A DNA stretch of 8,667 nt. Source: a virus (lineage: Duplodnaviria > Heunggongvirae > Uroviricota > Caudoviricetes). The notes under the pieces were generated by a model that saw only the letters and a program-made list of their open reading frames with translations, was not told the origin of the DNA and made no database searches. This document shows positions 4,379 through 6,153 of the stretch, piece by piece (position 1 is the stretch's first letter; every line of letters begins with the position of its first letter). The stretch lies in IMG/VR virus record IMGVR_UViG_2579778894_000017, one strand, 5' to 3'. The translations under genes were made by a program, and so were the position numbers.

Positions 4379-5410
4379 ATGTCTATTAATCCTAAACTTA
4401 AGCGTATCGCGCGACGCTATCCAGCGTTATTCCAATATGAGTCCCCCTATATGGCAAGAAAATTAATAATATTCGGCAACGGTCTCGGTATGGCTTTAGA
4501 TCCTGCTCACTTCTCCTTAGACAGAGCGTTGGAAGAAATTTGGCATCGCCCCAATTTTTTAAAAGATATCCACAAGCAACTTATCGAGCGTTGTCTTCAG
4601 CGGCAAGGTCCACCAGAAGGAGAACATGAGTTGGATACCCTTCACCAGGCTGTCACATATTGTAAAGCTCTTGCTCAAATTGGAGAGGGGAACGTGCATT
4701 GGCTTACTGAAGATGGACTAAACTTCCCCAAAATTACCGCCACTTATATTCACAAAGTTGCAACCAGGTTGCATAATTACGATAAAGGTTTGCCACAAAG
4801 ATTCGAAAATGCGCTTGTGGAGTTTGTAAAGAACACACACTCACATATCGCGACATTAAACTATGACAAATTATTATACAATTCATTCATAGATAATGAT
4901 ATATTCAACGGGTATGATGGGGTTTTAGTTGATGGGATGCTAAGCCACGGATTTTCCTCTGCAGCGCTCGAACGGAAATACAATCGTAGGTTTGGTTATT
5001 ATTTGCACTTGCATGGTTCACCACTATTTATTAATCAGCATGAAAATGTTTTAAAACTTTCACGCTCACAACTTACTCTTGACATAGATGAACCTAGTGA
5101 GCATATAGTGTTAACTCATATAAAAAGAAAACCGTCAGTTATAGCAGCATCTAATGTTCTTTCTACGTACTGGGATTATTTGCAGTTTGCATTATTTGAA
5201 TCAGAAGAAATAATATTGTTTGGTTACTCTGGTCTCGATATTCACCTTAACCTGCTTATTCGACCTTACCTAACCTCTAAGCCTTTAAGAGTAATTGAGT
5301 GGAGCGGTGCTGGTGAACAAAACGCTCGTGAGATATATTGGAAAAACCAGTTGAGACGGGAAGTTACTGTAATTAGGTTGGATAACATCACTGATTTTAT
5401 TGATTGGTAG
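4379..5410 (+). CDS. SIR2-like (DHS-like NAD-binding fold) protein; candidate NAD+-degrading anti-phage defence effector
   Basis: 343-aa ORF in a visibly AT-rich segment. Ordered motifs typical of defence-type SIR2 domains: glycine-rich IIFGNGLG (aa 30-37), TLNYD (aa 159-163), HLHGS (aa 210-214) and FGYSGLD (aa 281-287). Start codon uncertain (4379 has a weak RBS; alternative ATG at 4451). Confidence 0.7.
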   Translation: MSINPKLKRIARRYPALFQYESPYMARKLIIFGNGLGMALDPAHFSLDRALEEIWHRPNFLKDIHKQLIERCLQRQGPPEGEHELDTLHQAVTYCKALAQIGEGNVHWLTEDGLNFPKITATYIHKVATRLHNYDKGLPQRFENALVEFVKNTHSHIATLNYDKLLYNSFIDNDIFNGYDGVLVDGMLSHGFSSAALERKYNRRFGYYLHLHGSPLFINQHENVLKLSRSQLTLDIDEPSEHIVLTHIKRKPSVIAASNVLSTYWDYLQFALFESEEIILFGYSGLDIHLNLLIRPYLTSKPLRVIEWSGAGEQNAREIYWKNQLRREVTVIRLDNITDFIDW

Positions 5411-5480
5411 CGCAATGCGAAGTTAAAGAGGCAGCCTCATATTTATCAGAGCTGGTGTACGTCCAATACAGGAGGTTATC

Positions 5481-5570
5481 GTGCTGGTTCTCAAATGCGC
5501 GCTGGCTATTGCGGCTGTAGTGGCAATTTATTGTCTTGCTATTGTTCTTATGGATCGCCTTTCTGATTGA
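5481..5570 (+). CDS. Putative 29-aa hydrophobic single-TM peptide
   Basis: AGGAGG at 5471-5476, 4 nt before GTG at 5481; translation MLVLKCALAIAAVVAIYCLAIVLMDRLSD, stop TGA at 5568-5570. Too short for the ORF track. One predicted TM helix with a charged C-terminal tail. Confidence 0.4.
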   Translation: MLVLKCALAIAAVVAIYCLAIVLMDRLSD

Positions 5571-5595
5571 TTTTATATTGGCGAGGTGACGGGAG

Positions 5596-5660
5596 TTAAG
5601 TAGAATTGCTGCGGGTGCTTGAGGCTGTCTGCCTCGGGCATGCCACCGTAAGGCAGACAG
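5596..5660 (+). promoter_or_regulatory. hok mRNA 5' leader: upstream complementary box and leader hairpin
   Basis: 5' GCGGGTGCTTGAGG (5611-5624) is complementary to CCTCAACGCACCCGC (5987-6001) near the mRNA 3' end, and GTTAAGT (5596-5601) to CACTTAAC (6001-6008). Hairpin CTGTCTGCC (5625-5633) / GGCAGACAG (5652-5660). Confidence 0.6.
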
Positions 5661-5689
5661 AGAAAAGCCCCAGTTAACATTACGCGTCC

Positions 5690-5760
5690 TGCAAGACGCT
5701 TAACATTAATCTGAGGCCCAATCTATGCTTCACAAACGTAGGTTAGCCTCTTACGCGCCG
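5690..5760 (-). ncRNA. Possible Sok-type antisense RNA overlapping the mok start (boundaries not determined)
   Basis: By analogy with hok/sok loci, the antitoxin RNA is encoded antisense to the mok translation-initiation region. A short GCGTC/GACGC inverted repeat and a duplicated TTAACATTA lie here. No promoter or terminator was pinned down. Confidence 0.25.
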
Positions 5761-5937
5761 AAAGGCAAGGAGAAGCAGGCTATGAAGCAGCAAAAGGCGA
5801 TGTTAATCGCCCTGATCGTCATCTGTTTAACCGTCATAGTGACGGCACTGGTAACGAGGAAAGACCTCTGCGAGGTACGAATCCGAACCGGCCAGACGGA
5901 GGTCGCTGTCTTCACAGCTTACGAACCTGAGGAGTAA
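5725..5937 (+). CDS. Mok-like reading frame (in-frame N-terminal extension of hok)
   Basis: 70-aa ORF sharing frame and stop with hok, the arrangement I recall for chromosomal mok/hok pairs. Its start sits where the antisense RNA would pair. Confidence 0.45.
   Translation: MLHKRRLASYAPKGKEKQAMKQQKAMLIALIVICLTVIVTALVTRKDLCEVRIRTGQTEVAVFTAYEPEE
5782..5937 (+). CDS. hokD: Hok/Gef-family type I toxin (51 aa), closest to HokD/RelF
   Basis: MKQQKAMLIALIVICLTVIVTALVTRKDLCEVRIRTGQTEVAVFTAYEPEE has the Hok-family signature (single TM, conserved RKDLCEV, TGQTEVAVF). AAGGAGAAG RBS upstream of the ATG at 5782. Confidence 0.9.
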   Translation: MKQQKAMLIALIVICLTVIVTALVTRKDLCEVRIRTGQTEVAVFTAYEPEE

Positions 5938-6005
5938 GAGACCAGGCGGGGGAGAAATCCCTCGCCACCGCTGATGTGTCAGGCATCCTCAACGCACCCG
6001 CACTT

Positions 6006-6032
6006 AACCCGCTTCGGCGGGTTTTTGTTTTT
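6006..6032 (+). terminator. Intrinsic terminator of the hok transcript
   Basis: AACCCGC-ttcg-GCGGGTT stem-loop followed by TTTTGTTTTT. Confidence 0.75.
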
Positions 6033-6153
6033 ATTTTCAACGCATTTGAAGTTCTGGACGGTGTCGGAATAGAATCAAAAATACTTAAGTAGTGCGCAGG
6101 GATAAGAGGGATGGTCCCTTAAAGGGGAGAGCTAATTATCCGGAAGGATTCTG

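Follow-up and report, generated by a model that had tools for sequence, protein, structure and literature searches.

A very probable small membrane-protein gene of the hok module, upstream of hok in Escherichia coli lambdoid prophages

Introduction

Does a reading frame of only 29 codons, lying between a SIR2-like gene and a hok toxin gene in a prophage-type genome, encode a protein at all, and if so, to which of its two neighbours does it belong? The question is raised by an 8,667-nt stretch of DNA (hereafter the window, meaning this whole stretch) from a member of the Caudoviricetes (Duplodnaviria; Heunggongvirae; Uroviricota), IMG/VR record IMGVR_UViG_2579778894_000017, in which a reading of the bare sequence, referred to below as the original prediction, had singled out a short hydrophobic open reading frame (ORF) preceded by a consensus Shine-Dalgarno (SD) sequence. 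With a probability of about 0.72, we consider that positions 5481-5570 are a genuine translated gene for a 29-residue single-pass inner-membrane peptide, which moves together with hok as a mosaic module. On the comparisons below, the small ORF is very likely a real gene for a small membrane protein, and one that very probably goes with the hok module of E. coli lambdoid prophages, not with the SIR2-like gene.

Results

The small ORF runs on the plus strand from a GTG start at 5481 to a TGA stop at 5568-5570, between the SIR2-like gene (stop codon ending at 5410) and the start of the hok mRNA at 5613; its 29-residue product reads MLVLKCALAIAAVVAIYCLAIVLMDRLSD. An SD sequence, AGGAGG, occupies 5470-5475 of the same strand and is followed by the 5-nt spacer TTATC (5476-5480), as the original prediction had described it except for a start given one base late, at 5471. 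The core of about 19 residues (6-24) has a mean Kyte-Doolittle hydropathy of 2.84 and holds no polar residue in any of the lineages considered below. The product is accordingly predicted, as before, to be one transmembrane helix followed by a short charged tail at its C-terminus, and the peptide presumably inserts into the membrane. Chance is a poor explanation of this arrangement. The pattern AGGAGG-N(4-8)-RTG is found at two sites in the 8.7-kb window where 0.44 would be expected, the other being the start of a DUF977 gene; among the 105 ORFs of 20-60 aa on both strands, the 29-aa ORF alone reaches a mean hydropathy of at least 2.5 over a 19-residue window; and this ORF is the only one of the 105 to combine an SD with such a membrane-grade stretch, a combination that none of 200 shuffles yielded.

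A second class of hok loci carries, at the same position as the form found in the window (type A), a related peptide that we call type B, MSDDISLAMEGALAVIAVVGVYCLVVFLMDRLGN. Types A and B are identical at 15 of 28 residues (54%), and their alignment score of 80 lies 13 standard deviations above that of composition-matched shuffles (21.7 +/- 4.3), a value reached by 0 of 20,000. Gap-free DNA similarity, at 63% identity, begins at codon 2 and ends with the stop; outside it, the sequences are unalignable until the -10 region of hok. When 2.3 Gb of phage DNA was searched by tblastn with type B, type-A ORFs were the only other matches. Type B is the RefSeq coding sequence ECs_5710 (YP_009502606.1; 34 aa) of prophage Sp6 of E. 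coli O157:H7 Sakai, and the significant homology, together with the location of both directly upstream of a hok promoter, places the window ORF in the ECs_5710 family. The two share the single-helix design, a YCL...LMDRL motif, an SD-led start and their place before hok in a lambdoid prophage, whereas ECs_5710 starts with ATG and carries five additional acidic residues at its N-terminus, and its flanks differ, with another small ORF (resembling type C, below) upstream in place of the TTGAAK-17-CATATT element of type A, and a 24-nt palindrome downstream. ECs_5710 is also annotated in RefSeq and has RIBOseq support, unlike the type A of the window, which has neither. The palindrome, CCGATATGGGAATTCCCATATCGG, is perfect and lies between the type-B stop and the hok promoter (2567-2600 of the Sakai Sp6 locus, L344; also in L087, L112, L086, L136 and L063). 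A direct repeat of about 16 nt, GGGTAAAAACGgTTtGCgG, brackets the type-B cassette, which suggests that the cassette has been inserted or deleted.

ECs_5710 corresponds to XECs145, which was found to be translated in the RIBOseq study of Huecker et al. 2017 (PMC5597208, S2 Table); the coordinates of that study differ from those of the current Sakai record by 144 nt throughout, and the stops of XECs145 and ECs_5710 coincide. In LB, XECs145 has a transcriptome RPKM of 79.1, a translatome RPKM of 346.1, a ribosome-coverage value (RCV) of 4.35 and a coverage of 0.99; the corresponding figures are 121.3, 150.1, 1.14 and 0.84 in BHI, and 73.3, 1.1, 0.01 and 0.37 under BHI stress (PMC5597208).

Two further lineages extend the family. 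Type A', which sits downstream of a relative of the SIR2-like protein that is 87% identical to it, differs from type A at 12 of 28 residues, all of the changes being hydrophobic-conservative, and has lost its stop through an 11-nt deletion that adds six codons. The other lineage is found in 124 Shigella plasmids and encodes MLVLKGTLAIAAVMTIYCLIVVLMERFSD. On the virulence plasmid pINV, the ORF is 80% identical to that of the window without gaps, the differences falling 10/1/7 by codon position, while the hok leader that follows is only 55% identical, with 18 gapped columns, and the hok gene itself is gone. On pCP301 (L345 1643-1732; NC_004851.1 219920-220009), an intact 29-aa ORF with promoter and SD lies about 290 nt upstream of icsP/sopA, and a hok-like remnant follows at about 1733-1880 of L345, in which a hok-promoter-like TTGGCG-18-TAGAAT is preserved and the leader is decayed. 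Judged by its sequence, the region upstream of icsP/sopA is a relic of the module that pairs the small ORF with hok, and the listed papers on the icsP promoter give no hint of it in title or abstract. Across types A, A', pINV and B, then, the SD core, the start codon and the frame have been retained, the frame staying open at 20-37% nucleotide divergence, and the start codon stands at one fixed position, as GTG in A and A', ATG on pINV and either ATG or GTG in type B. The family is very probably a narrow one, limited on present sequence matches to Escherichia and Shigella, with peptides of 29-35 aa in types A, A' and pINV and of 34 aa in type B.

Conservation of the reading frame across homologous prophages, which the original prediction had made a test of its proposal, was assessed in 132 copies anchored on the sequence 3' of the small ORF, a sample that is hence unbiased as to the ORF itself. 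The ORF is intact in 113 of them; the rest are recombination junctions and one decayed lineage (L252/L299), in which a 2-nt deletion and a ruined SD (AGGAGG to AGAAAG) have removed frame and SD together. In a set of 51 distinct type-A haplotypes, the nucleotide diversity (pi) of the small ORF is 0.058, that of the 53 nt upstream of it 0.187. The first, second and third codon positions of the ORF have pi values of 0.042/0.040/0.097 and 8/7/15 segregating sites, and there are zero indels. All amino-acid replacements are conservative (A/T/V, I/V/M, L/F, S/T, D/E, R/H, C/Y and M/T). In 24-30 upstream haplotypes, no variation affects the GGAG core of the SD, the start codon or the distance between them, amid spacer bases and flanks that do vary (pi 0.15-0.19). 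Pooled over the comparisons within A, A-A', A-B and A-pINV, differences by codon position amount to 35/20/44. In a neutral simulation, in which the same number of transitions and transversions was placed at random, the probability of keeping an open frame with a core hydropathy at least as high as observed was 0.002 from A to A' and 0.001 from A to B, and the probability of an open frame with no polar residue or proline in the 19-residue core was 0.11 and 0.009, respectively. Ten residues are invariant in A, A' and B (L2, L8, A9, A12, V13, Y17, C18, L19, M24 and R26), of which R26 is polymorphic with H within type A.

Upstream of the ORF, the hexamer CATATT (5438-5443, plus strand), a putative -10 element, is invariant in 30 distinct upstream haplotypes, and TTGAA[T/G] (or TTGATT or TTGCTG) stands exactly 17 nt 5' of it across at least five very different spacers. 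Because conserved hexamers thus flank a spacer of fixed length and variable sequence, we infer that TTGAAK-17 nt-CATATT is a real sigma-70 promoter and the ancestral promoter of the small ORF itself, with a predicted transcription start near 5448-5450 and a leader of about 30 nt. In the window, as in L001-type loci and close relatives, the position of the -35 hexamer (5415-5420) reads ATGCGA. Loci with the 87%-identical SIR2 relative (L340-L343) hold about 90 more bases at this junction, including an intact TTGAAT -35, and for this reason the arrangement of the window is taken as a deletion derivative. With its -35 deleted beside the SIR2 cassette, the window copy is probably expressed through transcripts that run on from the SIR2 gene or the early right operon, or else is weakly expressed. 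A scan of the window found no terminator between the SIR2 gene and the small ORF, nor between the small ORF and the hok promoter, and the small-ORF transcript should therefore run on into hok.

The hok promoter, TTGGCG-17 nt-TAGAAT (5578-5606, plus strand), begins 8 nt past the small-ORF stop and was located by a promoter scan, at a position that fits the 5' end of the mRNA. The hok mRNA itself (5613-6030, plus strand; Rfam RF01794 match at 5613-5787, 116 bits), with its sok antisense region, contains the mok frame (5725-5937) and the hok frame (5783-5937, annotated as hokD in the RefSeq record of L001), both taken from the ORF list and on the plus strand, as is the terminator found at 6006-6023. 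When viral contigs were scanned with the small-ORF peptide motif, the hok leader was found downstream at a fixed distance in 118 of 118 informative copies among the matches listed; counted from the small-ORF stop, type A has 42 nt and type B 75-76 nt before the leader.

So strict an association makes it attractive to regard the small protein as a functional third component of hok/sok, be it a modulator of Hok or immunity factor against it, a co-toxin, or a transcription unit whose promoter feeds 5'-extended hok transcripts. The missing terminator before the hok promoter would suit such a role, and so would the fact that Hok and the small-ORF product are both small membrane peptides. Unrelated small hydrophobic ORFs also occupy the same place in other hok loci. 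One of them, type C, is a 27-aa hydrophobic helix, MTWPEALTTVGIAMAVALVVYSICRWG, found directly before the hok promoter in many other prophages, where it is coupled by an ATGA overlap to a preceding DUF551-type gene and has no promoter of its own. Another, type D, of 32 or 59 aa, MEKIDVLILMFGHINALFLGVFMAVMCIEYWR, lies about 150-60 nt upstream of the hok mRNA start in L137, L130, L128 and L009. Types C and D resemble A/B in position relative to hok, in size and in their hydrophobic helix, and their homology to A/B is marginal or absent (p about 0.01-0.4 against shuffles). Since the unrelated type D also precedes hok, small membrane ORFs before hok recur in at least three sequence families. In Sakai Sp6, an unannotated 27-aa hydrophobic ORF related to type C, MIWPEAFAITGVAIAIDFLVYVICRWG, lies just upstream of ECs_5710 (L344 2345-2428; NC_002695.2 about 1550844-1550927) and overlaps by ATGA with ECs_1518, a protein with a DUF551-type C-terminus.

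Against a third component stands, first of all, separability: many hok loci with identical Hok carry no small ORF of types A or B, or have other sequences in its place, and the small ORF is truncated, with hok retained, by no fewer than five independent recombination junctions (near 5512, 5527, 5533, 5538 and 5546). Moreover, the pINV ORF is intact beside a decayed hok, and the small ORF bears no sequence relation to Hok, its alignment with the Hok transmembrane segment being no better than that of shuffles (p = 0.10-0.15). An obligate component of hok is ruled out by the loci that lack the ORF, by the truncations and by the plasmid copy that outlived its toxin. Close physical proximity alone could account for co-inheritance in mosaic phages, and a functional third component is on balance unlikely. 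The truncating junctions, which map to the equivalents of 5512-5546 in L305, L268/L271/L330, L277, L109 and L269/L274/L005/L064, each keep the last 25-60 nt together with the hok promoter, and the new upstream genes include the ends of QueH-like and SEC-C-motif genes. Why they cluster in the 3' half of the ORF may have to do with a hotspot of recombination, or with sequence 5' of the hok promoter being needed.

A number of results count against a translated gene at this locus. The small ORF is no more conserved than the adjoining non-coding sequence, its pi of 0.058 standing against 0.064 for the hok promoter and 0.068 for the hok leader in the same 51 haplotypes. The dN/dS ratio (NG86) is 0.31-0.46 on 28 codons, and out-of-frame controls give similar values for A-B and A-A'; the differences between A and A' by codon position (6/7/7) show no third-position excess. 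As at least five truncating junctions retain hok, the small ORF is dispensable for the phage. Searches of Pfam, PHROGs and NCBIfam found no family covering it and hence no hint of function. Support from translation data is confined to the paralogue ECs_5710 in an uninduced lysogen; the XECs145 interval begins 57 nt before the type-B start and has a slight overlap with a further small ORF, and its reads may be multi-mapping among prophages. Finally, the window copy is without a -35 hexamer.

Some of these results would be expected if there were no gene, the stretch being kept as cis-acting DNA or RNA of hok or through recent spread of the module, and the open frame being incidental. Such an account would explain why the diversity of the ORF is about that of the hok promoter and leader, why dN/dS equals that of the frame controls, and why truncated copies always retain the 25-60 nt that adjoin the hok promoter. 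It does not explain why types A and B, unalignable as DNA outside the ORF, have a protein identity of 54% that is bounded by codon 2 and the stop, why SD and start form conserved islands within which GTG and ATG interchange, why the hydrophobic core has been kept against neutral expectation, or why the pINV ORF outlived hok, and it leaves aside the RIBOseq support for the paralogue; we regard it as very unlikely. Because dN/dS is no different from its controls, we relied on codon-position diversity and on the hydrophobic-core simulation. In the synonymous-substitution analysis that the original prediction had proposed, the skew of pi towards third positions is seen and a dN/dS distinguishable from frame controls is not.

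A second type I toxin-like peptide, which the original prediction had also entertained, would normally be restrained by an RNA. Size, a single hydrophobic helix and a charged tail do recall TisB, ZorO, DinQ and ShoB, the ORF adjoins a type I toxin locus (hok/sok), and a promoter-like site runs on the minus strand from 5599 to 5570. More generally, a small size, a single hydrophobic helix and a short polar tail characterise the type I toxins Hok/Gef, TisB, ZorO, DinQ, ShoB, Ibs and Ldr; the small ORF parts from them in that we saw no signal of an antisense or adjacent small RNA, no long structured leader and no family match. Thus, an Rfam search gave no match over the small ORF, and a Pfam search returned no Hok/Gef or other toxin family at E <= 1. 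The minus-strand site is the only one of its kind, and its -10 is not conserved (ATTTTA in the window, ATTTCA in many alleles). RNA folding against shuffles revealed no excess structure on either strand (z = 0.37 for plus, -0.06 for minus). An antisense RNA antitoxin is therefore not indicated. Silencing by a structured mRNA leader is equally hard to reconcile with a strong SD, a leader of probably some 30 nt and a paralogue whose RCV is 4.35 in healthy, unstressed LB cultures, unlike a translationally silenced toxin. These findings speak against the toxin proposal, which we consider highly improbable.

Upstream lies the SIR2-like gene (4379-5410, plus strand; Pfam SIR2_2, 26.1 bits against a cut-off of 24.5, with weak PADLOC matches to Aga_SIR2, PDC-S21 and SIR2). 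It is a stand-alone gene inserted between the DUF977 gene and the module of small ORF and hok and is, by appearance, a candidate single-gene defence cargo. The boundary between the two units is a junction or deletion scar at 5424-5430: homology to contexts without SIR2 begins at about 5428-5432, and most genomic matches start at query base 18, that is, at about 5428, between the SIR2 gene and the small ORF. Upstream of this point the neighbours vary; among them are various phage genes and a chromosomal MFS gene that borders a prophage remnant. The SIR2-type context or allele of the window is found in 3/84 to 6/134 type-A copies (about 4-5%), and no SIR2 gene lies upstream in about 95% of type-A copies, nor in any type-B or pINV copy. 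In the reverse direction, all 13 viral loci with this SIR2 protein or its 87%-identical relative have the small ORF and hok downstream, and in viral contigs the SIR2-like gene was found solely at this position. Two SIR2 lineages at one site attribute this association to a single ancestral SIR2 insertion upstream of an existing pair, and the sequences fit SIR2 as cargo inserted once. That the small protein might serve the SIR2-like defence gene as partner, sensor or effector, a suggestion to which the 13/13 association and the closeness of two genes 70 nt apart on the same strand had lent appeal, is scarcely tenable given that the dependence is one-way and traced to that one insertion, that a module boundary separates the genes, that about 4-5% of type-A copies have SIR2 upstream, that the ancestral layout would give the small ORF a separate promoter, and that type B, pINV and prophage-remnant copies do without SIR2. 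With about 95% of type-A copies free of SIR2, the obligate co-occurrence expected of a multi-gene SIR2 defence system is likewise absent.

Two observations concern the region downstream of hok. At 5946-6027, over the 3' end and terminator of the hok mRNA, Rfam gives a match to isrK that stays below threshold (24.9 bits against a gathering score of 50) and most likely represents the terminator hairpin. In the closest complete-genome relative, E. coli 2013C-4465 (L001 6693-8427, compared with about 6040-6150 of the window), two extra genes, encoding a hypothetical protein and an HTH-domain protein, lie between hok and an 83-aa ORF and are absent from the window.

Discussion

Our best guess is that the small ORF encodes a single-pass inner-membrane accessory protein that is expressed in the lysogen. 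In the ancestral layout, a sigma-70 promoter belonging to the gene itself (TTGAAK-17 nt-CATATT) would have driven a transcript with a leader of some 30 nt and a canonical SD, the gene standing directly before the hok/sok promoter, and the small ORF and hok would travel together as one mosaic module among lambdoid prophages. In the window copy, a deletion beside the SIR2 cassette would have taken the -35 hexamer, leaving transcription to read-through from the SIR2 gene or the early right operon, or to a weak residual activity. The peptide would be made in the lysogenic state and inserted in the inner membrane as a single-pass microprotein, where it may act as an accessory ("moron"-type) protein through helix-helix contacts with a membrane target, without requiring the adjacent hok to be functional. 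It may also be a regulator of membrane proteins, as the original prediction had suggested. A size in this range, a single transmembrane helix, a strong SD and a tendency to escape annotation pipelines are also traits of MgtS, AcrZ, CydX and MgrB. These are core-genome genes with known partner proteins, whereas the small ORF is cargo of prophages and a plasmid, and family searches show no sequence similarity.

The tuning of Hok is the most interesting alternative role, disfavoured by the dispensability of the small ORF and by the pINV data. One could nevertheless picture hok/sok loci as three-part modules, in which a constitutive small peptide (A/B, perhaps C/D) sets the sensitivity to Hok or acts with Hok at induction, or in which its promoter feeds 5'-extended hok transcripts. 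Such a picture is doubtful; if it were true, the survival of the pINV ORF beside a dead hok would mean protection against other Hok paralogues, or a second role.

Of 5426 complete E. coli genomes, 1363 carry the 190-nt segment that holds the small ORF, with identities of 88-100%, and the isolated temperate phages Tritos, Evi, mEp460_ev081 and HannyBb (n = 4) carry it as well. Beneath the match there is no annotated feature in the 30 RefSeq records listed of the 1363 genomes, and on this sample the gene is missing from standard annotation. The description of the ORF as unannotated holds for those 30 records and fails for GenBank, where the exact peptide and close variants are entered as "hypothetical protein" or "membrane protein" (E. 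albertii and E. coli B REL606/BL21, the BL21/REL606 allele being MLVLKCTLAIVAVMAIYCLVIVLMDHLSD). A protein-database search with a 40-aa read-through variant matched its own cluster only, searches of this kind being near-useless at such a length. We found no mention of the peptide strings or of ECs5710 in the main texts of the literature, nor does the small ORF feature in the paper on hokW-sokW, the preprint on the Pas sRNA or the "Cryptic Bacterial Microproteome" paper. What is already known is therefore that the family exists in databases as a hypothetical protein, one member having published RIBOseq support. What is new is that the unannotated 29-aa type A can be placed in the ECs_5710 family, that it has a putative promoter, that it is strictly associated with hok and independent of SIR2, and that a relic survives on pINV.

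Assigning the small ORF to the hok module rather than to SIR2 averts a wrong call of a "two-gene defence system", and places a relic of the module in the much-studied region upstream of icsP on the Shigella virulence plasmid. For E. coli, the analysis points to a probable prophage membrane protein that is present in about a quarter of complete genomes and has been missed by standard annotation. Studies of prophage hok/sok, for instance of HokW-dependent phage release, may have in this small ORF a possible extra player to consider; otherwise it would be one more uncharacterised small membrane protein and not a novel type of system.

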